A stretch of DNA of 64,000 bases from Candidatus Adlerbacteria bacterium (GCA_903851045.1 CAINNF010000015.1:96644-160643), one strand, 5' to 3'. Counted from the first letter of the stretch, positions 22,482-56,091 are shown. Translations and numbers: made by a program. The notes: generated by a model from the letters alone, not told the origin.

Positions 22482-22605
22482 CACCATTCCCCTTTCGTGG
22501 GATATGTGGTTGATCGAAAGAAACAAGTCCAAAAATACCCTACTCGAAAAACAGAGGCTTCGCAACAACACTAAAGGCGCTCACCAAATAGTTGCACCTT
22601 AACCT

Positions 22606-22640
22606 TCCCGCGAAACATCTCCCCGCAGCTCGATAGCTCC
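22606..22640. repeat. 35-bp direct repeat, copy B (TCCCGCGAAACATCTCCCCGCAGCTCGATAGCTCC)
   Basis: See copy A. Lies in the divergent region upstream of the purC-purE gene. Confidence 0.8.
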
Positions 22641-22736
22641 GTTCTTGGCCTGGCATACATGGTCGTCGCAGGTGTCTTTACATACAATAATAAATATGTT
22701 ACATAAGTACTGGCAACCTGTTCTGGGAGAACAACC

Positions 22737-23357: not shown

Positions 23358-23469
23358 TCCCAACCCCCGCCTCGTGCAAAGACTCGACACAAAGTCCTTG
23401 CACCAGCGGGGACTTTTTTATATGAAGTTCGTTCAACTAACGCAGTCAGACTACGTTAGTTCCAAGAAG

Positions 23470-25248: not shown

Positions 25249-25298
25249 AATGGTACAAATCTACCACATTCCTTTAAATAAAATAGCAACAAGACATA

Positions 25299-25964
25299 TT
25301 ACTTCGGATTTTTGATGAGCCCGACCACTTTGCCGCTGATGGAGAAGTCATCGTCTTCGTGGATATAAATGGGCTCGTAGTCGAGGGAGGACTCGGCTTT
25401 GAGGACTATTTGGTCGTTTTCTTTTCGGTCGTCTATGTAGCGCTTGATGGTGGCTTTGTTGTCGACCAAGGCTAGGACTATGTCGCCGGTTGAGGCAGTG
25501 CGGCTTTCGCTGTCGACTATGACATAGTCGCCGTCGTCGATGCACTTCTCGCCCACCTTCGCGCGGTTCATGGAGAGGCCGTCGGTTTTGATGGCGTAGA
25601 GGCCGCGCGGGCGGGAGCGGCCGACGAGGCGGCTGGAGACGCGGAGGAAGCCTTGGAAGTTCGCCTCCGCGAAGATAGTCGCGGGGCCGCAGTTGGCGGT
25701 GCCTATGACGGGGATAGAGAACATGCTCGTTTTGTTTTCAAGCAAGCCCTTGGACCATGTCGGCGTCGTGGCGGCGCGGGTCATCACGCCTTTGGCGCGG
25801 TCGAGCGTGACGAAGCCTTTTTTCTCGAGCTGGAGAAGGTGGTGTTTGATCTTCTGCGGAGCCTCCTGGGGGGCGCCTATGAGCCGCGCGACATCACGAA
25901 GCGAGAGCTTCGCTAAATTTTCGCTACGGGAGAGCTCGAGTATTTTCTCTTGGATCTCGTGCAT
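25299..25964 (-). CDS. lexA: LexA-like repressor (N-terminal LexA wHTH + C-terminal S24 peptidase)
   Basis: IQEKILELS...HLLQLEKKGFVTL is a LexA DNA-binding domain. GLSMNRA (Ser) and KRY (Lys) form the S24 catalytic dyad. It is 50 nt upstream of the OLD gene on the same strand. Confidence 0.8.
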   Translation of the reverse strand: MHEIQEKILELSRSENLAKLSLRDVARLIGAPQEAPQKIKHHLLQLEKKGFVTLDRAKGVMTRAATTPTWSKGLLENKTSMFSIPVIGTANCGPATIFAEANFQGFLRVSSRLVGRSRPRGLYAIKTDGLSMNRAKVGEKCIDDGDYVIVDSESRTASTGDIVLALVDNKATIKRYIDDRKENDQIVLKAESSLDYEPIYIHEDDDFSISGKVVGLIKNPK

Positions 25965-26379
25965 ACAAAGAAGTGTACCACAGCGAAGTTATACAGCAAG
26001 TACTGTACATACGACTTGACGTTCTTTACACCCTTGCTACGATTAAAGAGTTCTCGGGACCATTAGTCTCCTCGCGAGAAGTCGAGTCGCGAGCGCGAGG
26101 ACCAACACATGACACGCATGCCATCGAGCAAGCGAGGGGCGAAGGGCACACCCCACCACGTGGTGACCGGCAGGCCAACCACCGCACAGTACGCAGCGCT
26201 CCACCCGGAGAAGGTGCAGTGGGTGAAGCAGGCACGGCAAGGGGCCGGGGCGTTAGACTAGGTGCACCGGTGCAAGAGCGAAAAGAAAAGTACACGAGAG
26301 GGACCCGCGCGAGGAGGTGAACACTCACCTATTCACGCGGGTTTTCTATATATCACTGACAGGTGGACAAAGGAAAAGC

Positions 26380-37906: not shown

Positions 37907-38404
37907 TTAGAACGTGGGTGTACCGAGCGGGTGGGCGTTGATGATCGTCCGAGTGCCGTTCGTGTCTTTTTTTATGAGCAGCAACTGTGTGGGAACATGC
38001 CGCATACCAGGAAGGAATGCGCGACCATCGTGCGTGGTCACGTGCGGACGGTACCCAGCCCCCACCCACCTGAGTCGCATGAGCGAGCTACCGGTCTGCA
38101 AGAGGTAGACGAGGAGCGTCGTGTGTAGATAGTTCAGCTCATCACATCGCCTGAGCGTATGCACCGGTATATCCATCGTAGCGCCGAACAGATCGGGCGC
38201 CTCCGACACGAGCTCGATACCTTTGGCCAGGGACGCCAACATACTCAACTCGTTATTGAGCCGACCGACCGAGTCGGCCCGGGTCGCATTCACACGAAAC
38301 CACTGCATGACCGTACAGTGGAGTGGCCAATGCTCGGTCCGTTTGATGACCGAACCGCAGGACATCTCCTCGACCGGCAACGCAACGAGATATTCGGTAT
38401 CCAT
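37907..38404 (-). CDS. 2H-phosphoesterase superfamily (LigT / 2'-5' RNA ligase-like) protein
   Basis: Two H-x-T/S motifs (HCTV and HVTT). A minus-strand terminator lies at 37866-37892. Confidence 0.65.
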   Translation of the reverse strand: MDTEYLVALPVEEMSCGSVIKRTEHWPLHCTVMQWFRVNATRADSVGRLNNELSMLASLAKGIELVSEAPDLFGATMDIPVHTLRRCDELNYLHTTLLVYLLQTGSSLMRLRWVGAGYRPHVTTHDGRAFLPGMRHVPTQLLLIKKDTNGTRTIINAHPLGTPTF

Positions 38405-38526: not shown

Positions 38527-39165
38527 ATGGACATGTTACGGTCACCCAGCGTTCGTCGAGTGCTGTTCGACTTCGACGGGACGCTGTTCGATACACAAAC
38601 GCTCCACGCGCAGGTCGAAGCCGAGCTGTGCAAACAACACGGCGTCATCGTGTCGCCCGACGAGATCACCGAACGCTTCGCTGGCACTTCGACAAAAACG
38701 ACCTTCGAGACGCTGCTTGGCTGTGACCCCGCTACAGCGGCAGCACTCGCACGTACGAAATGGGACATTATGTTCCCCCGCATGTGCGAAGCTCGGCCTC
38801 TTGCCGACCTTCGTCGCCTCTTCGTGATACTGCAAGCGCTCGACGTCAGTATCGCTATCGGTACCGCTTCTCCACAGAAGTGGGCGCGGGGCATCCTGGA
38901 ACGAAACGATCTTCTGTCTTTCTTCGAACAAGACAGCGTCGTCGGTGGCGACATGGTAGCGCAAGGCAAGCCTGCCCCTGACATATGGCTGCTCGCAGCC
39001 ACGCATGTCGACCCGAGCGCCTGTCTCGTGGTCGAAGATGGTGTGGCAGGTGTCGAAGCGGCACGGGCGGCGGGCATGCGTGCTTGTCTCCTGACGCCTC
39101 GAACGCACGGCTACGCGAGCTCCATATCGGAGCTCGCTGATATCTTGAGGATCATCTTTGGTTAA
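38527..39165 (+). CDS. HAD-superfamily hydrolase (beta-phosphoglucomutase-like subfamily IA)
   Basis: AGGGAGG SD. Has the FDFDGTL motif I and C-terminal VVEDGVAGVEAARAAGM. Confidence 0.8.
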   Translation: MDMLRSPSVRRVLFDFDGTLFDTQTLHAQVEAELCKQHGVIVSPDEITERFAGTSTKTTFETLLGCDPATAAALARTKWDIMFPRMCEARPLADLRRLFVILQALDVSIAIGTASPQKWARGILERNDLLSFFEQDSVVGGDMVAQGKPAPDIWLLAATHVDPSACLVVEDGVAGVEAARAAGMRACLLTPRTHGYASSISELADILRIIFG

Positions 39166-39378
39166 ACGTTCTTGCGATACACGATCGATCACTACACCCC
39201 CGGCACGATCACGTCGGGGGTGCTTTTCATCTGCATAGTACAAGTAAACGACCACTGGCCCTTGGGCCGGTAATCGTTTACTGCACAGTTCTCGTCGGTC
39301 GCCACCACATGACCACGAAAAAGGGCGGCCACTCTGTGTGACCGCCCAAGTAACACTAGATGGGTACCCCAACCCTCT

Positions 39379-39699
39379 TCAACATGTCTTTGAGCTTTCG
39401 TTCACCTTGAGCGATCCGTCGCAGCTCAGCTTCGACCCTGTCTTTGTGGTCGGACATGAGCGACCGGAATCTCCATAGTACGCGAGTGCCCATAAGGTAC
39501 TGTGCCGCCCAAGGATCTGTCGCAGCGAGCACATCTGCTCGGTCAACTGCTCCAGCGGCAACAACTTCAACCCAGCGAACAATATCGAGGCCCAGAGTTC
39601 GGGCTGGATACAGGCGGGATCTATCGTCGCCCGACCGGTGATGAACGCAAGCTGCTCAGCCGCCGAAGCCTCAGTGATACAAGCCATGGTCGCAACCAT
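39379..39699 (-). CDS. hypothetical protein (106 aa)
   Basis: AGGAGG sits 5 nt upstream of the ATG at 39697-39699. A minus-oriented terminator lies at 39325-39355. Confidence 0.5.
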   Translation of the reverse strand: MVATMACITEASAAEQLAFITGRATIDPACIQPELWASILFAGLKLLPLEQLTEQMCSLRQILGRHSTLWALAYYGDSGRSCPTTKTGSKLSCDGSLKVNESSKTC

Positions 39700-39835
39700 G
39701 CTGTCCTCCTACAGAGATGTTGTTGGTCTGGAACCTCGGTTCCGAAAACAAAATAGCATATGTATCTAAAAAGTCTAGTAACCCGGGTCCCGACGAAAAA
39801 GACCGCAGCGGTGACTGCGGTCTAGTGAAGCATCC

Positions 39836-40612
39836 TTATCGTCTCGGTACCCACACGATGAGCGATGCGTTGTCCTCGAGTCCTTGTTCTTCTCTCCATC
39901 GAAGGACATCTTCGGCGTCACAACCAGCTGCCGCTCTCGCGAGGAGACCGGTGAACGTGCGCGAGTCGATACTTGAGCGACCCGAATCGAACACACCATC
40001 CGACGCGACCATCACCACGCTACGCACACCGAGACGGTAGTGAGACAAGGTCGGCGTTCGACTAAGTATCCGCCGCAGCGTTCGGTTACCCAACGCACGA
40101 CTCAACTGCAACCCTGCACCAGAGGGCACACCGTCTTCGGATACATCATAGATATACCCACCTTCGTACACGGCTCCCCGACCGATCGCCGCCTGTCGCT
40201 CGACTTCGTTCGTGCGAACGTTGTGTTCAACACTGACACGGACCTGGCTGTTTCGATCGACGATGATGACGGGTGAGTCTCCCACTACGACCGCGGTAAC
40301 GATGCGTTTCGATTCGTTCACGCACGCGAGCGAAAGCGTCGTGCCAGCGTCATCAAGCGACGTACGAGCATCCAGCTGCGCAACGATCTTGGCGAGCTCG
40401 TACCCTATGTCTGGCGCTTCAGGGTCGAATAAACGCGGCACGACCTTCGAGCAGTATCTCGCCACCTCCCCACCGCCGTGACCGTCCAAGACACCAAGCA
40501 GATGACCTTTTCCGTTGCGTGCACTCGCGAACGGCACATGCACCAGATGGTCCTCCTGATAGTCACGCGGACCCTGCACTTGAGCAGCACTCACGACCCC
40601 TCGCAAGAACAT
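39836..40612 (-). CDS. PP2C-family Ser/Thr protein phosphatase
   Basis: Contains DYQEDHL, LGVLDGHGG and VASDGVFD, all PP2C motifs. A terminator lies at 39787-39815. Confidence 0.85.
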   Translation of the reverse strand: MFLRGVVSAAQVQGPRDYQEDHLVHVPFASARNGKGHLLGVLDGHGGGEVARYCSKVVPRLFDPEAPDIGYELAKIVAQLDARTSLDDAGTTLSLACVNESKRIVTAVVVGDSPVIIVDRNSQVRVSVEHNVRTNEVERQAAIGRGAVYEGGYIYDVSEDGVPSGAGLQLSRALGNRTLRRILSRTPTLSHYRLGVRSVVMVASDGVFDSGRSSIDSRTFTGLLARAAAGCDAEDVLRWREEQGLEDNASLIVWVPRR

Positions 40613-40680
40613 GACCGTTTCCTCTGTTCGACCTACATTTTATACAACACCGTATTTAACAGCGCGTCAACTCATAGTGT

Positions 40681-40709
40681 TTGACATACAATTTCATCAC
40701 TTGTACTAT
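40681..40709 (+). promoter_or_regulatory. sigma70-like promoter TTGACA-17nt-TACTAT for kinase operon
   Basis: Near-consensus -35 and -10 elements about 45 nt upstream of the kinase ATG. Confidence 0.6.
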
Positions 40710-40752
40710 CGGCATAGAGACACCTGAGTCCTTTCACAGCAAGAGGGCAGCC

Positions 40753-41775
40753 ATGGCCGCAGGATCACATCCGACCGCTTTCGAGAGCGACCTCTACCGC
40801 AGACTTGGAGTACGCTTTGACGCGCCCGTCGAGGTCATCAATGCCGCATACACGGCCTTGATGAAGCTCCACGGCCCACGCGCTATGAACGACGGCGACA
40901 TAACCGCAAAAGAACTCGGAGAAGCAAAAGCTATCCTCTCTGGCCGCGACCGATCGGCGTACGACGCCTACCGAAAGAGTTCCGTACGCGGAACGATCGG
41001 ACCATACCGACTTCTGCATCGGGTTGCGGAAGGAGGGTTCGGCACCACCTACAAGGCCGAGCATGTGCTCGTGGGAGAACCATCATGCATCAAGCACTGC
41101 TCTGAGATCTCACCGACCGCAGAGATGATCCTGAAGCAAGAGACCAAGGCTATCTGGAATCTTCGACACTACGGGATCCCGGTCATGCGGGACCTGTTGA
41201 AGCTCGATGATGGCAGCTACGCGCTCGCGATGAGCTGGGTCGATGGACTCACGCTTCAGCAAGTGGTCGAGCAGCACGGCAGACTCGATCCCGAGCATGT
41301 CGCATGGATCACTGAGCGCATTCTGAACACGCTCACGTACTTGCACCACCACGGTGTCGTTCACGGCGACATCAAGCCGCAGAACATCATCGTGCAAGAC
41401 ACGACGCATATCGTCGTGTTGGTCGACTTCGGACTCTCGGTGATCAAACCTTCGGCTACGTCCAACAGCAAGGGATACACCGACCTGTTCTCGCCGCCGG
41501 AACAAGTCGCGGGTACGACACTCATCCCAGGGTCCGACTTCTACAGCCTGGGCATGACGATGCTATACGCACTCGGCGGAGGATACTCGGCGGTCGAACG
41601 CAAGGATGTCCCAGCGAGTCTACCGGACCCGATGTGTGATTTCATCAAGTCGCTCATCGTCCGTGGCGTGCTCGAGCGCCCAAGGTACGCCGAGAAAGTC
41701 TTCGAAGACCTCAAGCGTGTCCGCATGCGAAGCTTCGGCAGAGAACATTCGGACATGAGACTGTTCACCCACTGA
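40753..41775 (+). CDS. Hanks-type Ser/Thr protein kinase with N-terminal J-domain-like segment
   Basis: AAGAGGG SD. Kinase motifs HGDIKPQNIIV, DFGLS and SPPE. The N-terminal ~70 aa (DLYRRLGVRFDAPVEVINAAYTALMKLHGPR) have a J-domain-like pattern without HPD. Confidence 0.8.
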   Translation: MAAGSHPTAFESDLYRRLGVRFDAPVEVINAAYTALMKLHGPRAMNDGDITAKELGEAKAILSGRDRSAYDAYRKSSVRGTIGPYRLLHRVAEGGFGTTYKAEHVLVGEPSCIKHCSEISPTAEMILKQETKAIWNLRHYGIPVMRDLLKLDDGSYALAMSWVDGLTLQQVVEQHGRLDPEHVAWITERILNTLTYLHHHGVVHGDIKPQNIIVQDTTHIVVLVDFGLSVIKPSATSNSKGYTDLFSPPEQVAGTTLIPGSDFYSLGMTMLYALGGGYSAVERKDVPASLPDPMCDFIKSLIVRGVLERPRYAEKVFEDLKRVRMRSFGREHSDMRLFTH

Positions 41776-41790
41776 CCACAGGAGAGGCGT

Positions 41791-42795
41791 ATGTCAGAAG
41801 ATGGCAACTTCACCCCAGCTCATTGGGGTGGCGGAGGTCATGATTTCAAAGACGCTTACAGCGCGTACGACCAGTACGCTGGTCGCAGCTACGAGACCGC
41901 GAAACTGAAGCAGAAGGACCGCAAAGATCTTCTTCCTGCGGAGCTCACCACTAACTCCAGCGCGCCGCTCGTGATCGTCACCGACCAGACCGGCTCGATG
42001 GACGAGTGGCCGAAGATCATGTTCTCGAAACTCCCATACCTTGAACTCGAAGCATGCGAGTACCTCGGCAGGGATATGGAGATCAGTTGGTGCGCCGTCG
42101 GCGATGCTCAAAAGGGCGAGGACTATCCGGTCCAGGGGCGCCCCTTCACCCACGGCACTGACCTCAAGACGAAACTTATGGAAATCGTGCTGGAGGGTAA
42201 GGGCGGCGGTGGCGGCAATGAGACGTATGAGCTCATGGCGCTCTATCTCGCCCGTAACGTGCGGATGCCTCGGGCAATCAGGAGGCCGATCTGTATCCTC
42301 ATCGGGGACGAGATCCCGTACGACATGATCTCGCCGGAGTTGGCAGCAACCTACGCTCGTGTCAAACTCTCGCAGCCTATCTCGACACACGAGGTGTTCG
42401 AGGAGCTTCGAAGAAAGTTCTCGACGTACATCATCAGGAAGCCATACTACACATCCAATGGTGACTCGATGAGCAGCTTCGACAAGAAAGCGATCGACTT
42501 GTGGGCACAGCTTCTGGGCGGCGCCGACCACGTCGCGTTCCTGCCACAACCGGAACGCGTGGTGGACGTCATCTTCGGTATCCTTGCCAAGGAGACAGGT
42601 CGCGTCGGGTACTTCCGTGAAGAGCTCGAACAGCGCCAGCTCCCCGACGCGGGCGGTGATGCGAAGGTCAAGACGGTGTACAAATCGTTGAAGACGGTCC
42701 ATGCACTGCCGCCACCCAAGGCTGGGGGGTCCGCGAACCTGTCGAAAACGCATGGGCTCGGGGGTGGAACACCCACGAAGCCCTTGATGGAGTGA
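41791..42795 (+). CDS. von Willebrand factor A (vWA) domain protein with MIDAS motif (TerY-like)
   Basis: AGGAGAGG SD. LVIVTDQTGSMDEW (DxTGS MIDAS), a downstream Thr (NETYELM) and Asp (ILIGDEIPYD). Confidence 0.7.
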   Translation: MSEDGNFTPAHWGGGGHDFKDAYSAYDQYAGRSYETAKLKQKDRKDLLPAELTTNSSAPLVIVTDQTGSMDEWPKIMFSKLPYLELEACEYLGRDMEISWCAVGDAQKGEDYPVQGRPFTHGTDLKTKLMEIVLEGKGGGGGNETYELMALYLARNVRMPRAIRRPICILIGDEIPYDMISPELAATYARVKLSQPISTHEVFEELRRKFSTYIIRKPYYTSNGDSMSSFDKKAIDLWAQLLGGADHVAFLPQPERVVDVIFGILAKETGRVGYFREELEQRQLPDAGGDAKVKTVYKSLKTVHALPPPKAGGSANLSKTHGLGGGTPTKPLME

Positions 42796-42848
42796 CACGG
42801 TGGGGAGAGTGAAAACTCTCCCCTTTTCTTTCTCACAGGAGTACGGCG

Positions 42849-43904
42849 ATGGTTTTGAACATCCACGCACTGCCCGTGCCGGCACCAGTCGAGCTCATGG
42901 TGACCTTGCTGCCAAGCCTCCCCCACTTCGCGACATTCGCAAGCGACTCGCGACTGGGAGGTATCCGCCTCAACAGTGCGATGCTTACCGCGTTCGACCT
43001 CGACCACGAACTCGCGCTCATTCCTACGGACACGGCGCTACCGCTCTACTTCGACATCAAGGGACGCCAACTGCGCGTCACCAAGGTGCATCCGAACCAA
43101 GAGTTCTTGGATTTCGAACTCAATCACCCGATCTGCGTCGACCTGCCCACACCAATCTTGTTCAAGGGCGGTGAGGACAGGGCGCTCTTAACACGCACGC
43201 ACGACGGTGAGCAGTGGCGCGACACCACCACGCCAGGTCGCTGGTACCAGAGGTTCGTGACACGAGGTGGACCAGAGTATATGGTCCGTCCTGGTGAGTC
43301 GGTCCATATTCGTGACAAGAGTCTGCGCGTTGGAGGCACCCAGTTCGTCGCGGCAGAGCTCGACAAGATCGAGCGGGTCAAGGCGTTCGGGATCACGCGG
43401 TGGTTCCTGTCATACGTACAGAGTCAACATGACGTGGACGAGTTTCTGGAACTCGTCGGCCCCGACGCCGAAGTAATCCTCAAGATCGAAAGCAAGCAGG
43501 GTCTCGAGTATGTCGCACGGGAGTTCAAAAAACGCGACAATCTGCGACTATGTGCGGCCAAAGGTGACCTCTACGTCGAACTGGACCGACCACACGACAT
43601 CCTGCAGGCACAAAGACTGATCATCGGGAAAGACCCACGGGCGTGTGCAGGCTCGCGCATGATGCTGTCGGTGATCAAAAAAGTGCCACACCTCCACCAC
43701 AATGAAGAGTCGAAAGAAAACACCATCAGGTGGTCGATCGAACCGAACCCCGTTCCTTCCGATGCCGACTTCGAACAGATCGCCTGGCTCTATGAGATCG
43801 GCTTTCGCTCCTTCATGCTTTGCGACGAGTTGTGTCTGCGAAACGACCTACTCTCTGTTGCCACCAACGCTCTGCATGAATTCATCTGTTCCTACCAGCA
43901 CTAA
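42849..43904 (+). CDS. pyruvate-kinase-barrel / CitE-HpcH-like TIM-barrel protein (divergent)
   Basis: VILKIESKQGLEYV, LCAAKGDLYVELD and ACAGSRMMLSV align to the PK active-site strands (KIENxEG, ARGDLGxE, ICATQMLESM). Confidence 0.55.
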   Translation: MVLNIHALPVPAPVELMVTLLPSLPHFATFASDSRLGGIRLNSAMLTAFDLDHELALIPTDTALPLYFDIKGRQLRVTKVHPNQEFLDFELNHPICVDLPTPILFKGGEDRALLTRTHDGEQWRDTTTPGRWYQRFVTRGGPEYMVRPGESVHIRDKSLRVGGTQFVAAELDKIERVKAFGITRWFLSYVQSQHDVDEFLELVGPDAEVILKIESKQGLEYVAREFKKRDNLRLCAAKGDLYVELDRPHDILQAQRLIIGKDPRACAGSRMMLSVIKKVPHLHHNEESKENTIRWSIEPNPVPSDADFEQIAWLYEIGFRSFMLCDELCLRNDLLSVATNALHEFICSYQH

Positions 43905-43910
43905 GTACGA

Positions 43911-43938
43911 AGCGAGTCCTCCGGGACTCGCTTTTTTG
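43911..43938 (+). terminator. rho-independent terminator (AGCGAGTCC-tccg-GGACTCGCT + TTTTTT)
   Basis: Ends the kinase-vWA-TIM barrel operon. Confidence 0.75.
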
Positions 43939-44000
43939 TGTACCAAGAAAGTCTTGTATATAGCCGATACCCATAGTACCTCTTGTGGCGTTATAGAGCG

Positions 44001-44028: not shown

Positions 44029-44057
44029 TTGACATACAAAGATTAAAAATGTAGTAT
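44029..44057 (+). promoter_or_regulatory. sigma70-like promoter TTGACA-17nt-TAGTAT
   Basis: Upstream of the 44140 gene. Shares the 'cttgacatacaa' context with the kinase promoter. Confidence 0.55.
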
Positions 44058-44799: not shown

Positions 44800-45426
44800 A
44801 TGGCACTCTCACTCAGTATCGTCGTGTGCATTGTAGCCGCATGGTCGCTGTGGGGATACCTGTCCTCTCGCGTCGAACAGGCCGCATACACCGTGACCAC
44901 CAAGGCGAGCGGTTACGAGATCCGTCACTATCCGGCGCATCTCGTCGCGCAGACGACCGTGACGGCTCCATATCGACAGGCGCTCCAAGAAGGATTCCGC
45001 ATCGTCGCCGCATACATATTCGGTGCGAACACGAAAAAGGAACGTGTCTCGATGACCGCCCCAGTCACCGAACAAAAACGTGACGGACGGTCGATAGCCA
45101 TGACCGCCCCGGTCACCGCGAACATCGAGGGCGAGTCGCACACGATCGCCTTTGGCATGCCGCGTTCGTACACACTCGACACCCTCCCCACGCCGACCGA
45201 CCCACGCGTGACTCTGGTCGAAGTCCCCGCCCGAGACATGGCCGCGAAAAGATTCTCTCTGTGGCGAACCGATGCGCGCGTCCGATCCACAAAAGAAGTA
45301 CTCCTTTCCGCACTGTCCCATGACAAGATTAAGGTCCTTGGAGAACCATACTATGCGGGATATAACGCCCCCTGGACCCCACCCTGGATGATGCGCAACG
45401 AGGTGCTGGTCGAGGTCGAAGCGTAG
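44800..45426 (+). CDS. SOUL/HBP heme-binding family protein, membrane-anchored
   Basis: YEIRHYPAHLVAQTTV is a SOUL family signature. N-terminal TM helix. Confidence 0.7.
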   Translation: MALSLSIVVCIVAAWSLWGYLSSRVEQAAYTVTTKASGYEIRHYPAHLVAQTTVTAPYRQALQEGFRIVAAYIFGANTKKERVSMTAPVTEQKRDGRSIAMTAPVTANIEGESHTIAFGMPRSYTLDTLPTPTDPRVTLVEVPARDMAAKRFSLWRTDARVRSTKEVLLSALSHDKIKVLGEPYYAGYNAPWTPPWMMRNEVLVEVEA

Positions 45427-46022: not shown

Positions 46023-46862
46023 TCAGCGACAAGTGAGCCACAATGGCGCATGGTCCGACGCCAGCGTTGCGGTGCCGACCGCGAGACCGTACACACACAT
46101 CTCACGCGAGACGAACACATAGTCGGCATGTCTCTGTTCGTCCAGGTAGAACTTCCGATACCGGGGCGTACGCGTACAGTCGATCTCATCCTCGCGGATG
46201 AGATTGCGCAGAGGGCCGCAATACTGCGACCCCCGCTCCAAGATCGTGATCGCATCCGTATCCAGTGCGAGATTGAGGTCCCCACCAAAGATGATTCGTC
46301 TGGTGGAATACTGTCGTGCTACCTCGTCGAGATACCGCAAGACCTGACGCGACTGTTCGTCCCGACGAGGATCGTCACCCTTCGTATTCTCGGGGATCCA
46401 AATCCCGTGCAAATGAGCGACGACGTAGGTGTGTCCATCCATGCGCACGACCACATACTGCAACATTCGTTCGCGGACACCCGGCGTGTCCTGCAAAATG
46501 GGGACACTCGCATGCTCGAGAACCTCGAGACCGTGCCTTTCCAAAAGCGCGCTGCCAAACCCGATGCCGTGATAGTCCTTACCCGTACGCCTGCACTGCC
46601 AAGTATTGTAGGCCGGTGTCGCATACTCGATGTTATAGCTCGGACTAAACTCCCGCTGCAGTTCCCCCAGACCATCGATGTAGCTCGGCGGCTCGTCGGG
46701 ATTCGTACTCGTGTGGACGCGCGGCACGGGGCTATAAGGATGCCCCATGCTCGTGACCTCGGTCAGACAACAGAGATCGTACGGACGCCTGCGCAGATAG
46801 TCGCGAATACCGCTGGGGTCGCGATGACCCCAGATATTCCAGAACAGCACCGATAGTGTCAT
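46023..46862 (-). CDS. endonuclease/exonuclease/phosphatase (EEP) family protein
   Basis: LFWNIWG N-terminus. C-terminal GGDLNL and SDHAPL motifs. Confidence 0.75.
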   Translation of the reverse strand: MTLSVLFWNIWGHRDPSGIRDYLRRRPYDLCCLTEVTSMGHPYSPVPRVHTSTNPDEPPSYIDGLGELQREFSPSYNIEYATPAYNTWQCRRTGKDYHGIGFGSALLERHGLEVLEHASVPILQDTPGVRERMLQYVVVRMDGHTYVVAHLHGIWIPENTKGDDPRRDEQSRQVLRYLDEVARQYSTRRIIFGGDLNLALDTDAITILERGSQYCGPLRNLIREDEIDCTRTPRYRKFYLDEQRHADYVFVSREMCVYGLAVGTATLASDHAPLWLTCR

Positions 46863-46974: not shown

Positions 46975-47508
46975 ATGACCACACCCTTTCTTATCCTTGT
47001 CGACGGGCCGATGGGTTCGGGCAAGACGACCACGACGAAACTGCTGAGCGAGAAGCTGCCCGACGCGGCACGAGTCGCGTTGCCGGATATAAAAAGACTC
47101 GTCCCCAACTACCGGGAGAACGAGCAGACGCTCACAGTGATCCGGGAAGTGATGCGTGTGATGATCGACACTTATCTTAAGTTCGGGGTGAGCGTCATCG
47201 TCGAGCAGATAACGCGAGCCGAAGGCGTTGCTTTGCTTCGAAAAATCGCCGAGCAACACGGTGCTACGTTCTCTGCCTACCGACTCACGGCGCCGAAAGC
47301 CGTTCGACTGAAACGGGTCCACGAGCGGACGCGAGAGATGCTGGGCGTGCCAGCACTCCCCCAGTCAAAGATCGACGAGCTATCCAACTACTTCGAACCG
47401 AACGACGCATTCTATACCAACAATCCCGTTGACGCCGCTGAAACGATCGATACGCAAGACATGACCGCGGAGCAGGTCGCGGAAGTTATTCTAAGCAAGC
47501 TATCGTAA
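46975..47508 (+). CDS. P-loop NTPase, nucleotide/small-molecule kinase-like (AAA_33/zeta-toxin-like fold)
   Basis: Walker A GPMGSGKTT at the N-terminus. Confidence 0.65.
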   Translation: MTTPFLILVDGPMGSGKTTTTKLLSEKLPDAARVALPDIKRLVPNYRENEQTLTVIREVMRVMIDTYLKFGVSVIVEQITRAEGVALLRKIAEQHGATFSAYRLTAPKAVRLKRVHERTREMLGVPALPQSKIDELSNYFEPNDAFYTNNPVDAAETIDTQDMTAEQVAEVILSKLS

Positions 47509-49808: not shown

Positions 49809-50069
49809 TTACCAGATCCCCGGGCCATCTCCATCGAGATACCACAAGCCGTCGATCAATACTATTTTGATGGTCTGCCCATTCGCAACAACGCAGTCGC
49901 CGTACGTATCCGTCTTGTCTACCAGCCGCACACACCCACGAAACGCGTAATACCGCTCGAAGGTCGTGTGCGCGAGGTGTGTGGTATAGACCTGGTACAC
50001 CAACACCACTCCCGCAACCAGCAACAAGAGACCAACTTCCCACAAAGTTTTGTGTTTGTGTATTACCAT
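49809..50069 (-). CDS. small membrane-anchored protein (86 aa)
   Basis: ATG at 50067-50069. TM helix LWEVGLLLLVAGVVLVY. Confidence 0.4.
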   Translation of the reverse strand: MVIHKHKTLWEVGLLLLVAGVVLVYQVYTTHLAHTTFERYYAFRGCVRLVDKTDTYGDCVVANGQTIKIVLIDGLWYLDGDGPGIW

Positions 50070-50600
50070 ACATTCTATAGAACTGCGCTGAGGCACATAA
50101 GTCACCCTTGAGTATCTCTTTCCATATCCCACCCTCACACATCGCACTACTTTTATAACACCAAAGAGTTGGCTAGTGGACGCAAGATAATCTTTCGAAA
50201 ACAGTACCAATATGCAGACAAAGTACGAAAAACGAACCTCCATGTGGGAACTGTGGGGATCAAAGATAAAGAGAATTCACGCAGATACGTAGAAGCCAAA
50301 GACACCTTTATGACCCACTACACCCAACACGTGTCCCGCGACCACTAAGGAATATGTAGAAAAAGAAATGCCGCTTAGAATATAAGCGGCAAGGGTGGTT
50401 TGAGCTTGTCCAGTATTTTCCCCGAGGCACCACCAGGGAATTGTTGAACGATCACCGCCAGCAGTGGCCACCCAAGAAGGGTCGCGTCATTGTCCAAAAA
50501 CTACTCTTGGACCCCACGCCCACCTGACGTTCAGAGCTTAAGCCCGTATGATTGCCCAAACCATCCATATCTAATCACACTCCAACAAAAACACAAACAT

Positions 50601-50630
50601 GGAAATTGGGGAGGCGTCCAATTGATTACG
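50601..50630. repeat. partial tandem copy of MITE left end (GGAAATTGGGGAGGCGTCCAATTGATTACG)
   Basis: Exact duplicate of the first 30 bp of the adjacent element. Confidence 0.8.
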
Positions 50631-50640
50631 TGGAAATTGA

Positions 50641-50778
50641 AATTGGGGAGGCGTCCAATTGATTACGATTTACTGTGGTCTAATGGTAATCTCCATCCGC
50701 TATGTTAATCAATGTAGCATAGCAGGAACCAATTACCACACCACACGATTTTCAAATTAAACGGACGCCTCCCCATTA
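50641..50778. mobile_element. MITE-like 138-bp element, copy 1, with 12-bp terminal inverted repeats GGGGAGGCGTCC...GGACGCCTCCCC
   Basis: About 140 bp identical to copy 2 at 53614-53753. No coding capacity. Intergenic. Confidence 0.75.
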
Positions 50779-50860
50779 TTCCATTATTCAGGAAAGGAAA
50801 GAAAGGAAAAGGCCACGGTTACTTGATTAACCGTGGCCCAGTATCGCCGGAGCGTGTCGG

Positions 50861-51943
50861 CTAGCGCTCGAACGCTCTTCCCGCTATCCGCTTGTAGAGC
50901 GCGGCAGTGTTGCCGCGCTCACCCTCGAAGTGTGAGGTACGGATGATCCCCGCAAGAATCTCAAGGCGCCAATCATACCTGGCGGTCCCCGGGTCGGTTA
51001 CCGAGGTCAGGATAATGATGCCTTTCGGGCCATAGAACTCCTGGAAGATGATACCGAGGGTTCGTCTCCAATATTCAGGCGCTTGCGCGTCGAACAGTAT
51101 CTTAGCGAGGCTGGGATCTTTGCCGAGCGCCTCCAGCACATCCTCTTGCATCTGCTGGAGGAGTGGGGAGACGAGGTCGATGTCGCGATGGTCGTTGTAG
51201 ACCCTGTTGACACCACGCAGGTCGGACCTCATCCACACGTCCGTGAGCACCCCACTCACGAACCCATGACGAAACCGAGGACCATGCATCGTACCGAATC
51301 CATGCAGCCAATGACCGTAGTAGTAATCGTGGCTGATGTACCGACCCGAACGAGCATCTTCGACGTGGGCCAAAGTCCAGGCGGTCACAAGTGTCTGAAA
51401 CGCAGACGCCAGGTCGGCAACTTTCTCGAAGAAGGAATTCGAAGGGTTGCCCGCGTAGGCGTCGTCTGGGCCTTCATATCGAAGGTACAGGGTCTCGTTA
51501 TCGTGACTGAATCCAGCTTCGGCTTTCGCCCATTCGGGAGAACCCTGCTCAACCTCAGCGATCGAGAAGAAGCCACCAAAGCCAGCGTCGCGTCGAGGGA
51601 AGATGGTGGTGAAATAGTACACCGTGCGGTCTCCCGCATGCACCTTGACCTCGTCGACCTCGATCACACTCTTTTGGATCACCGTGTCGGCGAGATGGAG
51701 TCTCAGTAGACGGTCTCCCTCCCTCAGCTCATGCAGATTCACCCACCTCAACCTCACACCGAACATGCCGTCGGTGATCCCGAGTTGACCTATGTCGGCC
51801 TTGATCCGTTCCAGATCCTCGCGTCGAGGTCTCCGTTTGCCGGGAACCAAAATTCGAGAGGACTGTCCATAGAGATACGGCGCGATGTCGACGAGATCGT
51901 CCTCGCTTCGGACTTGAATAAGCGGTTTACCCATTTTCGCCAC
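50861..51943 (-). CDS. hypothetical protein (360 aa), no recognised domain
   Basis: Long ORF with good coding statistics. Last gene of the MITE-bracketed cassette. Confidence 0.55.
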   Translation of the reverse strand: MAKMGKPLIQVRSEDDLVDIAPYLYGQSSRILVPGKRRPRREDLERIKADIGQLGITDGMFGVRLRWVNLHELREGDRLLRLHLADTVIQKSVIEVDEVKVHAGDRTVYYFTTIFPRRDAGFGGFFSIAEVEQGSPEWAKAEAGFSHDNETLYLRYEGPDDAYAGNPSNSFFEKVADLASAFQTLVTAWTLAHVEDARSGRYISHDYYYGHWLHGFGTMHGPRFRHGFVSGVLTDVWMRSDLRGVNRVYNDHRDIDLVSPLLQQMQEDVLEALGKDPSLAKILFDAQAPEYWRRTLGIIFQEFYGPKGIIILTSVTDPGTARYDWRLEILAGIIRTSHFEGERGNTAALYKRIAGRAFER

Positions 51944-52047
51944 CTCCTTAGTGCAGCGTTTTTAAGGGCGATAGTACCCAAAAACATAATATCACACTCT
52001 AAATACATATGTCAACAGGTTGTCGGGGAACATAATTTCCAGATCAA

Positions 52048-52716
52048 CTAGACGGCTCCGTAAGCTTCCGATGAAAGCGCCCCGAGATAGTCCCACAGTT
52101 TGGTGATACTTTTTTCTCTCGTCCAAAAGTTCAGGATCTTCTCACGAATGTCCTGATGCTGCGGATAGCCTTCGTCGTATGCTCCCTCGGGCATCAGATC
52201 TTTACACTCCACATTAAGCAGGACGGTGAGCGACTCTTTGAGATCATTATACTTGAGCGCTCCCAGTCGCTGCTCTTCGTCTGGGCCCAGACCATACCAT
52301 GTGTAGAAATGCCACAGCTCATGCATCGCTATCTTGCGTGGATAGAACACCGGCACCGTAACGAAGAAAAAATCGTTCTTGATGTTGTATGGGCGGCGGT
52401 TGTTGACCGTGAGATACGCATGTATGTCACGAGGAAGAGATACGCCAAAAAGAGCCTCCGCCCGTTGTTGGTACTCCCCCGCAACCGTGTCCCAGTCCTG
52501 TTGGTACTTGCGTATGTGTTCCTGAACATCGATACCCTTTTCGGCGATATACGCACGAACGAAACCCTCGACCATCTCGAGTGTCGGATCCTCGCCGCAG
52601 CGTGCCACCAACTGCTCATACACCCGAGTCGGCACCGAGGAGTTGTTCGAACTCTTCCCCTTGTTCAGGAGACACCACACATCCTTTCCTTCATCGTATG
52701 CAAAAATGACTTTCAT
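52048..52716 (-). CDS. hypothetical protein with HExxH motif (putative metallopeptidase-like)
   Basis: ATG at 52714-52716 with AGGAAA SD. IAMHELWHFYTWYG contains HExxH. Confidence 0.5.
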   Translation of the reverse strand: MKVIFAYDEGKDVWCLLNKGKSSNNSSVPTRVYEQLVARCGEDPTLEMVEGFVRAYIAEKGIDVQEHIRKYQQDWDTVAGEYQQRAEALFGVSLPRDIHAYLTVNNRRPYNIKNDFFFVTVPVFYPRKIAMHELWHFYTWYGLGPDEEQRLGALKYNDLKESLTVLLNVECKDLMPEGAYDEGYPQHQDIREKILNFWTREKSITKLWDYLGALSSEAYGAV

Positions 52717-52802
52717 GTTTTTTCCTAACAATATCTGGCAACATCAGAAATGAAGGAACCTATAGCCTACTGGGACTTTGGCACAAAGATCTCATGTAGA
52801 CC

Positions 52803-53381
52803 TTAGGATGTCCTTGCCAACGTTTTCAGCTCTGTGACCAACGGCCGCTCGTCTCCTTCAAAACTCGTTACCATCGCCTGCAAAAAACGCTCGGGGTCGA
52901 GTCGGTCGAGATTAAGCGGATGGCCAGCATGGTCGGCAAGGAGCAAGAGAAAGGATGTCTGCACACGGCCATTACCCTCACGAAATGGGTGGATCGCGTT
53001 AAGTGTCGCAAGAAAATGGGCAGCACGCTCCGCAAACACGTCGGTAGAAAGTCCGCAGAGATAGTCCTGACGCTTCAGTTCATTGAACAGTGTTTGCATC
53101 TCTTGGTCGATATGCTCTGGGTAGCAAAATGCGCTACCACCCTTGCCGATACGCACCGTGCGAAATTCTCCCGCCCACGAATACACATCCTGAAAGAGGT
53201 GGTGGTGAATGGCACAATAGTGAGTGACATCAAGCAGCCCGAGCGGAAGCGGTTCGTCAGAGCGCTGAGTGGTCATAGCCGCCTCAAACTCATCGAGCAA
53301 GTTTTGCTCTCTGCTATCGAGCAGATTCTTAAGAACTGTCGTCCCTTCGTAGCAATAGATATCTTGTACTGCGTCGTACAT
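52803..53381 (-). CDS. fic: Fic/Fido-domain protein (AMPylator family)
   Basis: Canonical Fic motif HPFREGNGRVQTSFL. Confidence 0.85.
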   Translation of the reverse strand: MYDAVQDIYCYEGTTVLKNLLDSREQNLLDEFEAAMTTQRSDEPLPLGLLDVTHYCAIHHHLFQDVYSWAGEFRTVRIGKGGSAFCYPEHIDQEMQTLFNELKRQDYLCGLSTDVFAERAAHFLATLNAIHPFREGNGRVQTSFLLLLADHAGHPLNLDRLDPERFLQAMVTSFEGDERPLVTELKTLARTS

Positions 53382-53390
53382 GGTCTGGAG

Positions 53391-53591
53391 TTACCGAGCG
53401 TACTTCTTGGAGATAGCTTGGCGTCTGTCTGCGTGAGAGAGATTCTTCTCCTCGAACACTTGAAAGTCCTTGCGCATCCCCGGAGTCAAACTGATACCCT
53501 CCACAGCGCTAATTTTAGCGAAGACCTTGCGACCAATAGTATAACTTTTGGGTATGTTTTTCACATTCATATTGTACCACACATCACCCAT
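53391..53591 (-). CDS. small protein upstream of fic (candidate Fic antitoxin/inhibitor)
   Basis: 66-aa ORF with its stop 7 nt before the fic start. Contains ISAVEG, which resembles the [ST]xxxE[GN] inhibitory motif but is not an exact match to it. Confidence 0.45.
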   Translation of the reverse strand: MGDVWYNMNVKNIPKSYTIGRKVFAKISAVEGISLTPGMRKDFQVFEEKNLSHADRRQAISKKYAR

Positions 53592-53613
53592 TCTCCAAAT
53601 TTAGGAAAATTGG

Positions 53614-53753
53614 GAAATTGGGGAGGCGTCCAATTGATTACGATTTACTGTGGTCTAATGGTAATCTCCATCCGCTATGTTAATCAATGTAGCATAGCAG
53701 GAACCAATTACCACACCACACGATTTTCAAATTAAACGGACGCCTCCCCATTA
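53614..53753. mobile_element. MITE-like 138-bp element, copy 2
   Basis: Identical to copy 1. TIRs at 53620-53631 and 53738-53749. Followed by CATTACC(C) tandem units. Confidence 0.75.
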
Positions 53754-53786
53754 CCCATTACCCATTACTGGACACCTCCCCGTTAC

Positions 53787-54389
53787 CTAGAGTCCTTGGA
53801 CATAGGGCGCTAAGGGATAGTACTCAAAGAGCGACTTACCTGATGCATCCTTACAGGATGCGATTTTGGCTGTGATTTGTGCGCGTTGTTGCGCAGAGTC
53901 AGCGTTCTTTACACGAACGATCTCCTTTTGATCTTCACTCGCCATGGCGAGTTTCCCTAGGTCATTACCATCGACCGAGTATTGGTCGACATAATCTTCC
54001 ATATCCATCATTAGAAATGTCTTATCGGTACATACGAAATGCGTCCTGTAGATGGACGGGTTCATGTCGACATACGCCCCTTTCACCAAGGAATTGAAAA
54101 TGCCCGTTGGGGCCAAGATTACCACAAGCACTAAGACGAGCAGTACCAGCAGAGTCAACACATACTGCTTGCGTATATACAGCACCCAACTCAACAAGAA
54201 AAGGATCGCTGGATATATAGCAAAAAATTGGCCCCAAGCGATGAGGCCTGCATACATGTCCCCTGGCGTGTCGTGCTGCATACCGAGCACAAGCAGTAGA
54301 GGCTCCAAGCCAATACCGACGACCCCCAAAAGGATAAGGAGTATCTTTGCAATCTTCCTATAATCCATACTAACCAGTATAACGTACAA
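53787..54389 (-). CDS. polytopic membrane protein (hypothetical)
   Basis: N-terminal half has 4 TM helices. Confidence 0.5.
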   Translation of the reverse strand: MYVILVSMDYRKIAKILLILLGVVGIGLEPLLLVLGMQHDTPGDMYAGLIAWGQFFAIYPAILFLLSWVLYIRKQYVLTLLVLLVLVLVVILAPTGIFNSLVKGAYVDMNPSIYRTHFVCTDKTFLMMDMEDYVDQYSVDGNDLGKLAMASEDQKEIVRVKNADSAQQRAQITAKIASCKDASGKSLFEYYPLAPYVQGL

Positions 54390-54542
54390 AAAATTTGGAA
54401 CCGACGCACAATCACACTCGCAGGTCGACCTCCCTCACGAACTGAGGTTGGTCGTCACGTTTTGTTTCAGAGCCCGATAAAATGAAACCATTATACCTCC
54501 TTGGACCACTATCGCTGTCCAGTTATGTGACTGTCCACCTCC

Positions 54543-55241
54543 CTACTTCCTCCCCTCCCACTCAAGGAGGAACTGCTTCATGTAGGCTTGGAGGTATTGG
54601 TGCCTTTGTTTGGCGATCGATGTGCCGGTTGGGGTGTTCATGAGGTCTTTGAGGAGGAGGATCTTTTCGTAGAAGTGGTGGAAGGAGGAGCTCTCGAGTT
54701 TGCGGTAGTTGGCGGTCGTGTTGATTGGTTGGGGCTTTTTGGTCGGGTCGTAGAGGGGGCGGTGTTTGCTGCCGCCGAAGGCGAAGGCGCGGGCGATGCC
54801 TATCGCGCCCAGGGCGTCGAGGCGGTCGGCATCTTGCACGATGTGGAACTCCTTCGAGGCGTCGGTGCGTCGCTTGTTCAACGAATGACTGAAGGACATG
54901 TTTTTGATTATGAACAACACTTGGTCGATCACCTCCCCCGGCACCTTGTTTGCCTTCAAAAAGTTCTCGGCAATCGTGTAGTCGTCCTCCGCTTTTCCTA
55001 TCACCTTTCGGTCACCGACGTCGTGGAGCAAGACGGCCAGGTCGATGATGAATTGGTCGGCCTTCTCCTTTTTGTTGATGGTCCGGGCGTTGTTGTACAC
55101 CCGCTCGATATGCCACCAATCATGCCCCGTCCCCTCCCCCACGAGGGACTTCTTTACAAAGAGGACTGTTTTTTTGAGTATTGCTTGTTTGTTCATACGT
55201 TCAGTTAAAGAAGTCGTCTTATCGCTCTGGCTTGGCTCCAT
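54543..55241 (-). CDS. HD-domain phosphohydrolase (YedJ/YpgQ-like)
   Basis: Contains GHDWWHIERV, LLHDVGD and DADRLDALGAIG, all HD motifs. Confidence 0.75.
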   Translation of the reverse strand: MEPSQSDKTTSLTERMNKQAILKKTVLFVKKSLVGEGTGHDWWHIERVYNNARTINKKEKADQFIIDLAVLLHDVGDRKVIGKAEDDYTIAENFLKANKVPGEVIDQVLFIIKNMSFSHSLNKRRTDASKEFHIVQDADRLDALGAIGIARAFAFGGSKHRPLYDPTKKPQPINTTANYRKLESSSFHHFYEKILLLKDLMNTPTGTSIAKQRHQYLQAYMKQFLLEWEGRK

Positions 55242-55377
55242 TATACTGCCGAATCACCCCGGCTATGTTCCGATAATGTAGTGAGGAGGACGGTACGGTC
55301 ACGATTAGACAATATGACCCGAAACATATTTGGATACACAAAGCTCCTGTTGAAAAAAAGAAAACCGGATGCGTAGA

Positions 55378-55938
55378 CTAGTGGTTAAATTGGGTGGACG
55401 CCACTATCTTTCGTAACATATCTTCGTATGTACTCACTTCAGAATCAGATACGTTGGCGATATCGATGTACAAACGGTCGCCAGCACTATCGAAAGGACC
55501 TGACAGAGCCTCAATATCATTTGCGTTGTCGGGAGATCCGTTGACAACGACACCTTGGTTTCTGTGATGCCAAAGGAGTCCTGATGTGTTTCCGATTGAT
55601 ACCACCTCTGGCTTCCCCGTGTTGCTAGGTGTGATCATACCCTTATTCGCCTCAGTAATAATGTGTGTCGAACCAAAAATTACCATACCCTTCGGCACAC
55701 TACCCGTGATAAGTTTGCCGGTATCTGATCCTGTGGGAACATACATGGTGAGACTAGAGGGTACCTCAAAAGAAAACGTACCCTGAGGATCTGCGTATGT
55801 AACCCAGCCGTTTCCCATATCGGTTACACCACTCGCTACACCACTTTTGTGTGCACTCCAATACACACCACCTGCAATAACCAGAGCGAATATACTGAGC
55901 AGAAAGATGGTGGAAAAACCTTTTTGAAAATTGTTCAT
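55378..55938 (-). CDS. membrane-anchored extracytosolic hypothetical protein
   Basis: ATG at 55936-55938 (MNNFQKGFSTIFLLSIFALVIAGGVYW). Confidence 0.5.
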   Translation of the reverse strand: MNNFQKGFSTIFLLSIFALVIAGGVYWSAHKSGVASGVTDMGNGWVTYADPQGTFSFEVPSSLTMYVPTGSDTGKLITGSVPKGMVIFGSTHIITEANKGMITPSNTGKPEVVSIGNTSGLLWHHRNQGVVVNGSPDNANDIEALSGPFDSAGDRLYIDIANVSDSEVSTYEDMLRKIVASTQFNH

Positions 55939-56091
55939 GTGGATATTGTAGCTCCAATTAGCCGTCAGTTCCACCCTTTTGCAGAACTCGCCCCGTGGCT
56001 CACGCAAAATGACACAAGGCTCCCTCTCTTGTGCTGTCTTAGTCACGTGTGGCCCGCCACGCGTGAGTGAGCGAAGCGAACGAATTTTGCG

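Follow-up and report, generated by a model that had tools for sequence, protein, structure and literature searches.

The window analysed here, 64,000 nucleotides of a Candidatus Adlerbacteria genome with coordinates counted from its first letter, contains an operon that encodes a Hanks-type Ser/Thr kinase with an N-terminal J domain, a divergent von Willebrand factor A (vWA) protein with a metal-ion-dependent adhesion site (MIDAS), and an enzyme of the pyruvate kinase family that we refer to as PKb. A PP2C phosphatase gene lies divergently upstream. A first-pass annotation had interpreted this locus as a variant of the TerY-P signalling triad, built from the phosphatase, the kinase and the vWA protein. 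We found that the conserved unit is J-domain Hanks kinase, MIDAS vWA protein and PKb, in this order, and not PP2C, kinase and vWA. All open reading frames (ORFs) named in that annotation (HAD, 106-aa, PP2C, kinase, 334-aa and 351-aa) were present in our ORF listing, and the core of the locus is organized as follows:

39836-40612, minus strand: PP2C Ser/Thr phosphatase, 258 aa, divergent to the operon, with the motif LDGHGG (PF00481, 1e-14)
40681-40709, plus strand: sigma-70-like promoter candidate, TTGACA-17-TACTAT, matching the consensus at 10/12 positions
40753-41775, plus strand: J-domain Hanks Ser/Thr kinase, 340 aa from the ATG at 40753 (Pkinase, 7e-29)
41791-42795, plus strand: divergent vWA protein, 334 aa, with a complete MIDAS and a disordered C-terminal tail
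42802-42823, plus strand: terminator-like hairpin, GGGGAGAGU-GAAA-ACUCUCCCC followed by UUUUCUUU, between the vWA and PKb genes
42849-43904, plus strand: PKb, pyruvate-kinase-family enzyme, 351 aa, with A barrel and B domain
43909-43934, plus strand: intrinsic-terminator-like hairpin with T-run, closing the operon

Conservation and spread of the three-gene cassette

In a scan of one genome per GTDB species, 232 of 185,579 species representatives carried a relative, and the 79 best loci, from Patescibacteria, DPANN and Asgard, were analysed. PKb was located directly downstream of vWA in all 77 loci with continuing sequence (the contigs of the other 2 end at vWA), and the kinase directly upstream of vWA in 69/79, with four more cut at a contig edge. 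Given this regularity, chance cannot plausibly account for the adjacency of the three genes, and the survey of vWA homologues that the first-pass annotation had proposed did not reveal a random neighbourhood. PKb was never seen without vWA, and the kinase usually accompanied them. All-against-all clustering of the flanking ORFs, with antisense shadows discounted, yielded no fourth family in more than 14 loci, and no Ter, restriction or defence genes were found among the clustered flanking ORFs of any locus.

Homologues of the vWA protein and PKb number in the hundreds at 50-73% identity, nearly all of them in Patescibacteria and DPANN metagenome bins and often on shared contigs. A Woesearchaeota contig, for example, encodes a DnaJ-Pkinase protein of 335 aa, a vWA-like protein of 323 aa and a pyruvate kinase of 328 aa in the same order, with the vWA-like and pyruvate kinase gene calls overlapping by 29 nt; overlap of the vWA and PKb genes was frequent across loci. 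Within the main clade, archaeal vWA proteins are as similar to bacterial ones (identity of 0.50) as the bacterial ones are among themselves (0.495), which points to spread between domains rather than to ancient divergence. Two paralogous copies of the triad, one of the main clade and one of a divergent archaeal clade, coexist in some genomes (L066 with L075, and L047 with L076).

The full triad was also present in the 485-kb "uncultured phage" record LR745208.1 (L087, 131689-134652), of which L104 of IMG/VR is apparently a second copy. Scanning IMG/VR gave 21 loci, many on contigs of 50-485 kb; these contigs may be fragments of candidate phyla radiation (CPR) or DPANN genomes rather than viruses, and, apart from the GenBank phage record, they count for little here. 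ARH and Thg1-like genes lie near the triad in LR745208.1. In Mycobacterium cluster-C phages we observed a kinase and vWA-like (phrog_2971) pair without PKb, such as gp249 and gp250 of Catera (L088, region gp249-gp252), and likewise in 145 other mycobacteriophage records. This pair is located two genes from an annotated "2-aminooxy adenylosuccinate synthetase". In the Asgard archaeon Sigynarchaeum (L079, 7998-14019), thymidylate-synthase-like and QueC-like genes separate the vWA-like gene from PKb, a gene for an alkaline-phosphatase protein follows PKb, and no kinase was detected.

The phosphatase is distributed differently. It matched PF00481 with 55.3 bits against a cut-off of 20.3 bits, and its identification as a divergent PP2C with the LDGHGG motif was thus correct. 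A homologue was nearby in only 3 of the 79 species-representative loci (L013, L026 and L028, all more distant homologues) and absent from 76. The closest PP2C homologues (42-58% identity) nevertheless share contigs with the closest triads, and the gene adjoins the kinase gene in five of the six contigs inspected (L112-L115 and L117), the sixth being cut at its end. PP2C is therefore a genuine, lineage-restricted fourth component.

Immediately beside the four-gene module, a small RelA/SpoT-type HD (HD_4) hydrolase gene was seen in two of these contigs (L113, 9883-10500; L115, 2747-3361). In another (L114, 4020-5664), two tandem LSDAT_prok (SLOG-like nucleotide-binding) genes directly follow PKb, near an NrtR-like repressor gene.

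The literature that we searched contained no description of the triad, of a J-domain kinase together with a vWA protein or a pyruvate kinase, or of NAD, vWA and kinase in combination. The cassette thus apparently is undescribed, and the earlier impression that the J-kinase fusion and the co-transcribed barrel form an unusual combination holds up, this combination being a conserved hallmark across CPR, DPANN and Asgard. What is new is the J-domain-kinase fusion and the obligatory pyruvate-kinase-family enzyme, while a signalling module of kinase (with or without phosphatase) and vWA protein is of a known kind.

Properties of the encoded proteins

The kinase has the motifs HGDIKPQN, DFG and SPPE, as annotated, and K114, D206, N211 and D225-F-G are invariant across the aligned orthologues, so that the ATP-binding Lys, the HxD Asp, DFG and an APE-like motif of Hanks kinases are all present. 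With HGD in place of HRD it is of the non-RD type, and it is therefore unlikely to need phosphorylation of its activation loop. Its J domain covers approximately residues 13-71 of the 340-aa protein (residues 37-95 of the longer ORF as first listed). Against PF00226 the window kinase scored weakly, with an E value of 0.0026 that is below threshold. This profile matched 28 of 32 aligned orthologous kinases (best 1e-18), with which the window N-terminus is colinear in the alignment, and on these grounds we consider the J-domain homology real. The four kinases without a match are that of the window, just under the limit, and three from a divergent clade that have no N-terminal domain.

The first-pass annotation had described this N-terminus as J-like and devoid of the HPD motif. 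Indeed, the window protein reads HGPR at this position, and xAPR or xGPR replaces HPD in the window and its nearest relatives (L008 and L112-L115). Of 52 orthologues, 34 retain the His-Pro of the motif, and across the family the J domain would as a rule be functional in recruiting Hsp70, judging from its sequence. The C-terminal ~65 residues beyond the Pkinase match gave no Pfam match and showed no Cys-rich motif.

The 334-aa protein matched no model of Pfam, NCBIfam or PADLOC, and a precomputed Pfam domain was found in 0 of 120 homologues among the matches listed. Its identification as a vWA protein with MIDAS was nevertheless supported by fold searches, which settled what both this protein and PKb are: the AlphaFold2 model, built with a 50-sequence alignment, had a predicted local distance difference test score of 88, and the protein has the vWA alpha/beta fold with the DxSxS...T...D metal site. 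The MIDAS is complete (D65-x-T67-x-S69 and D173), with D65, T67, G68, S69 and D173 invariant in this alignment. Invariant residues were also found in the N-terminal peptide (M1, E3, P9 and W12). In a library of 1.84 billion proteins, the vWA-like family comprised 1494 clusters at 50% identity, 316 of them at an E value of 1e-30 or better. Three distant relatives (P0498, P0496 and P0510; L118-L120) are fused to a NUDIX or U-box domain; their contigs of 1.3-1.5 kb carry a single gene, look monocistronic and are possibly eukaryotic transcripts. Homology to YeaH/DUF444 was considered and rejected, because hhalign gave a probability of 4% limited to the MIDAS loop and YhbH an E value of 0.08, leaving an analogy only.

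PKb of the window matched PF00224 at 2.6e-5 (23.9 bits, under the 30-bit cut-off) and pyruvate kinases of the PDB at 2e-4. The family profile matched the latter at 6.5e-10, alignment to E. coli PykF by hhalign had a probability of 94%, and most homologues carry a precomputed PF00224 match. The protein consists of the A (TIM barrel) and B (lid) domains of pyruvate kinases, with a lineage-specific beta-hairpin insert at approximately residues 276-299, and ends after the last barrel helix, so that the C-terminal allosteric domain is missing. The equivalents of PykF R32, N34, D66, K68, R73, K220, E222, D246 and E314 are invariant in 50 of 50 PKb sequences (in window numbering, the invariant residues include K212, E214, D240, R40, R76 and E327). 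The catalytic Lys, the Glu and Asp ligands of Mg2+ and the phosphate-binding Arg are thereby accounted for, and the proton-relay position, T278 in PykF, is Ser in all sequences (invariant Ser269).

Compared with PykF and the short Entamoeba pyruvate kinase 8iw2, PKb differs not only in the missing C-domain and this Thr278-to-Ser change but also in the monovalent-cation site, which is remodelled, and at further positions: Ala for Ser36, Ile or Val for Thr67, an invariant Gln at position 117, and invariant Arg at the equivalents of Pro116 and Gln328 (rabbit numbering for the last three). An invariant C-D-E-x-C motif is present as well. By these comparisons, PKb is a pyruvate-kinase-family enzyme that retains the Mg2+/enolate catalytic core and has an altered periphery. 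The earlier assignment to a pyruvate-kinase/CitE-like barrel was right as to the pyruvate kinase superfamily; identity as a CitE/HpcH lyase was ruled out by the pyruvate-kinase-like barrel with its B domain.

These properties bear directly on the TerY-P interpretation, according to which a metal-sensing vWA/PP2C/kinase phosphorylation switch of the Ter family would have acquired a C-C lyase-type barrel. In the CoCoNuT paper (PMC10542128), the TerY-P triad of Anantharaman et al. (2012) is summarised as comprising a TerY-like vWA protein, a PP2C phosphatase and a kinase whose C-terminus bears a Zn-ribbon or, in the defence variant, an OB fold. Like such triads, the window encodes a vWA protein, a Hanks kinase and a PP2C together, plausibly as a reversible phosphorylation switch around a MIDAS protein, and the PP2C partner recurs in the sub-lineage of the window. 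Unlike them, it has a vWA protein of a different family unmodelled in the libraries. This protein was retrieved by none of the Pfam, NCBIfam and PADLOC models, and hence by no TerY-type vWA model among them, in searches that did not extend to a direct comparison of profiles with a TerY sequence. The kinase has its additional domain, the J domain, at the N-terminus, and neither a Zn-ribbon nor an OB fold at the C-terminus; PP2C is optional while the PK-like enzyme is the obligatory third gene, the barrel is not of the CitE/HpcH type, and the contexts are those of NAD salvage and housekeeping, with Ter genes in no locus. We thus conclude that membership in TerY-P is not supported and that the TerY-P variant, largely refuted, is very improbable; the likeness is one of logic, with kinase and phosphatase grouped around a MIDAS protein.

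Genomic context and possible function of the module

The most direct association with a pathway was found in a divergent archaeal paralogue clade (L072-L084), in which the kinase lacks the J domain and the triad resides inside single NAD-salvage operons. These have the form NAPRT-PncA-NadE-Nudix-NMNAT-kinase-vWA-(ARH)-PKb-NADK, where PncA is an isochorismatase-type nicotinamidase, and several include NrtR-like ADP-ribose-responsive repressors. Two examples are:

L084, 2773-12646: archaeal paralogue operon
L073, 507-12999: archaeal paralogue operon

Related genes accompany the cassette in several lineages of the main clade as well. In L008, the closest species-level relative of the window, NMNAT and NAD kinase genes directly follow PKb, and in L012 NMNAT and NadE are beside the triad. 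L028 has NADK, NAPRT, PP2C and kinase on one strand and vWA and PKb on the other, followed by ARH, NadE and NMNAT. In L112, whose PP2C is 55% identical to that of the window, Nudix, NadE, PnuC and NadR genes flank the module on one side and NAPRT on the other, while in L114 NrtR and Nudix are near it. In the phage record and several IMG/VR loci, no more than 6 kb separates ARH from the triad, and one distant homologue is a vWA-like-NUDIX fusion. These neighbourhoods suggest a role for the output of the module in the salvage of NAD(P)/ADP-ribose and nucleotides. The link to a nucleoside-like metabolite pathway that the first-pass annotation had mentioned for some TerY-P neighbourhoods is thus echoed in a different form, with relatives embedded in NAD-salvage/ADP-ribose clusters.

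A protein of ~550 aa, combining an N-terminal domain of unknown type with a class I S-adenosylmethionine methyltransferase, was observed beside the module in both settings, and is 45% identical between the Patescibacteria contig (L112) and a Nanoarchaeota contig of the archaeal operons:

L112, 9879-11534: methyltransferase fusion, 551 aa
L084, 12612-14321: methyltransferase fusion
L073, 14280-15998: methyltransferase fusion
L078, 11284-12792: methyltransferase fusion

As a whole, the locus is best explained as encoding a phospho-regulated, vWA-adapted phosphotransferase of the pyruvate kinase type that is linked to NAD/nucleotide salvage, an explanation that we believe and doubt in equal measure. 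PKb would be the catalytic output, a phosphoenolpyruvate (PEP)-type phosphotransferase whose regulation is supplied in trans, cis-allostery having been lost with the C-domain. The vWA protein, often translationally coupled to PKb, may bind peptides in a Mg2+-dependent manner and serve as an adaptor, docking either to PKb itself or to a protein or ligand with which PKb works. Phosphorylation by the kinase would determine the state of the complex and would be reversed by PP2C in the lineage of the window. In most lineages the HPD-bearing J domain could recruit Hsp70/DnaK; in that of the window HPD has been lost and PP2C is present instead. In CPR and DPANN cells, gene neighbourhood would place the module in NAD(P)/ADP-ribose and nucleotide salvage, and not in the response to tellurite or metals or in classic phage defence.

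A more specific version holds PKb to be a non-glycolytic, PEP-dependent phosphotransferase for NAD(P)/ADP-ribose salvage with a nucleotide-like acceptor, switched by the J-kinase and the vWA protein, which would couple it to Hsp70, as a hitherto unrecognised pathway element shared by CPR, DPANN, Asgard and their large phages. We regard this version as possible but tentative.

Several observations weigh against the phosphotransferase explanation. The mechanistic steps were all deduced from the domains and the gene neighbourhood. No NAD gene lies beside the module in the window, where the closest candidate is a Nudix-like ORF ~10 kb away, and a NAD gene was within 8 kb in only 5 of 64 main-clade species-representative loci; the strongest link to NAD comes from one paralogous archaeal clade, whose loci cannot be counted independently. 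The kinase can do without its J domain, which is absent in the divergent clade and has lost HPD in about one third of the kinases including that of the window. In PKb, residues of the K+ site and some of the nucleotide site differ from those of true pyruvate kinases (S36A, H37M, T67I/V and S312C, with the invariant Gln at the position of rabbit E117), and its substrates may therefore be other than PEP and ADP. Finally, a conflict system would also be compatible with the patchy distribution, the spread across domains and the presence in a phage.

The simplest alternative is housekeeping glycolysis, with PKb as the cell's pyruvate kinase (PEP + ADP -> pyruvate + ATP) regulated in trans by kinase, PP2C and vWA protein, and with incidental NAD neighbours. 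It is consistent with the conserved fold and catalytic residues, with the label "pyruvate kinase" that homologues already bear in several sources, and with housekeeping genes such as those for ribosomal proteins and aminoacyl-tRNA synthetases among many neighbours. No canonical pyruvate kinase was found in the window or any fetched locus, whole genomes being outside the scope of this search, which also agrees with such a role. The altered K+ site, however, argues against it. According to PMC5501398, Glu at position 117 marks K+-dependent and Lys K+-independent pyruvate kinases; the Gln of PKb belongs to neither class. Furthermore, H37 and the equivalent of K156, as aligned, are not conserved. 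The patchy distribution, the paralogous triads in some genomes and the embedding of operons among NAD-salvage and not glycolytic genes are equally difficult to reconcile with this alternative. The triad also occurs in Pacearchaeota (L052). According to a preprint on complete Nanobdellota genomes, K00873 "pyruvate kinase" is patchily distributed, with orphan copies in Pacearchaeales, which are unable to make PEP by glycolysis. Overall, we consider the glycolytic role unlikely.

Some of these calls may be PKb, for which a patchy and orphan K00873 would be expected. If PKb is non-glycolytic, many "pyruvate kinase" calls in metabolic reconstructions of the organisms that carry it would be wrong. 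Such reconstructions may count a non-glycolytic, kinase-controlled paralogue as the ATP-yielding step. Much of microbial diversity belongs to CPR and DPANN, whose metabolism is minimal.

The other alternative is the conflict system, that is, an NAD+/ADP-ribose-centred anti-phage defence or counter-defence in which kinase and vWA protein would sense infection or ADP-ribosylated proteins and PKb would be a metabolic effector or part of an NAD+-restoring route. In addition to the patchy, cross-domain distribution with its equal identities within and between domains, it is favoured by the full triad with ARH nearby in the 485-kb phage and by five further IMG/VR loci in which ARH neighbours the triad (L104 among them, apparently a second copy of that phage), although the "viral" contigs of IMG/VR are possibly mis-called CPR or DPANN fragments. 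The kinase and vWA-like pair of Mycobacterium cluster-C phages fits as well. ARG-centred systems with vWA "peptide-binding chaperones", NrtR-type regulators and HAD/HD phosphatases have been proposed as anti-ADP-ribosylation immunity (PMC9503650), and phage pathways of NAD+ reconstitution are established (PMC13464706). On the other hand, a PADLOC scan of six window proteins gave only generic kinase matches (PD-T4-6 and mad6) and nothing for vWA, PP2C or PKb, and nuclease, toxin-antitoxin and restriction-modification genes were not enriched around the cassette. Conservation is high (~50-60% across phyla), which is not the signature of rapid evolution, and the operon partners together make up the Preiss-Handler salvage pathway in full, as is typical of housekeeping NrtR regulons. 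A conflict system is thus decidedly unlikely in our view.

The phosphotransferase explanation has parallels in known modules. PpsR-PpsA and PDRP-PPDK are pairs in which a Ser/Thr kinase/phosphatase is encoded beside the PEP-utilising enzyme under its control. The arrangement is similar here, with a Ser/Thr kinase and phosphatase beside a PEP-type enzyme, but PpsR and PDRP are DUF299 bifunctional kinase-phosphorylases without vWA or J domain, whereas the module consists of a Hanks kinase and PP2C. The widely conserved PrkA/YeaG - YeaH/YhbH (DUF444 vWA) - YcgB/SpoVR module likewise combines a kinase, a vWA/MIDAS protein and a third protein; PrkA, however, is an AAA+-type kinase without J domain, and the third gene is SpoVR and not PK-like. 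In contrast to the MoxR-vWA activase pairs (CbbQ/CbbO and NorQ/NorD) and to ArnA/ArnB, no AAA+ partner is present, and the only chaperone link is the kinase-fused J domain, presumably for Hsp70 and degenerate in the window. The kinase-vWA pair could accordingly be viewed as an Hsp70-linked analogue of the MoxR-vWA activases; if fusion and adaptor work together, they would suggest a counterpart of which we found no description.

The cassette is kept at ~50% identity across two domains, in 232 species representatives and in a huge phage, even though its central protein has no Pfam or NCBIfam model, and its repeated embedding in NrtR-type NAD-salvage operons provides a concrete hypothesis for an uncharacterised module.

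Expression signals and neighbouring genes in the window

The promoter candidate TTGACA-17-TACTAT at 40681 proposed for the operon is present within the 140-nt intergenic region between PP2C and the kinase. Such sites occur at chance frequency in the region, with 3 found against 2.8 expected in shuffles, and the annotation is confirmed as to presence only. Because the TTG at 40681, listed as the start of the kinase, is the first base of the TTGACA -35 box, we corrected the start to the ATG at 40753, in agreement with the gene call on an identical metagenomic contig. A second promoter-like site, TTGACATACAA-17-TAGTAT at 44029-44057, lies upstream of a 180-aa ORF and has the extended -35 box TTGACATACAA in common with the candidate at 40681.

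At the other end, a hairpin with T-run is indeed located where a terminator of the operon had been annotated. The internal hairpin at 42802-42823 may be a putative attenuator that uncouples the expression of PKb: a GGGGAG...CUCCCC stem with a U-tract occupies the same gap between vWA and PKb in L112, L113, L114 and L115, and its arms vary between these loci yet still pair.

The HAD and 106-aa genes noted upstream of PP2C both exist, but they recur beside no relative. Together with the 165-aa and 180-aa ORFs they were found in 0 of ~110 related loci, and all four were rejected as parts of the system for this reason. These and other genes around the module include:

37907-38404, minus strand: ORF of 165 aa with two H-x-T-x motifs (HCTV and HVTT) and a weak 2_5_RNA_ligase2 match (E value of 0.008), probably a 2H phosphoesterase
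38527-39165, plus strand: HAD phosphatase (HAD_2, 1.7e-22)
44800-45426: SOUL haem-binding-family protein (1e-45)
46023-46862: Exo_endo_phos protein
46975-47508: Zeta-toxin/AAA_33-type small kinase

The Pfam names of the last two were taken from gene calls on the identical contig. Two stretches of the window, 22000-26000 and 50000-56000, have a lower G+C content (0.46-0.52 compared to ~0.57 elsewhere) and may be acquired islands.

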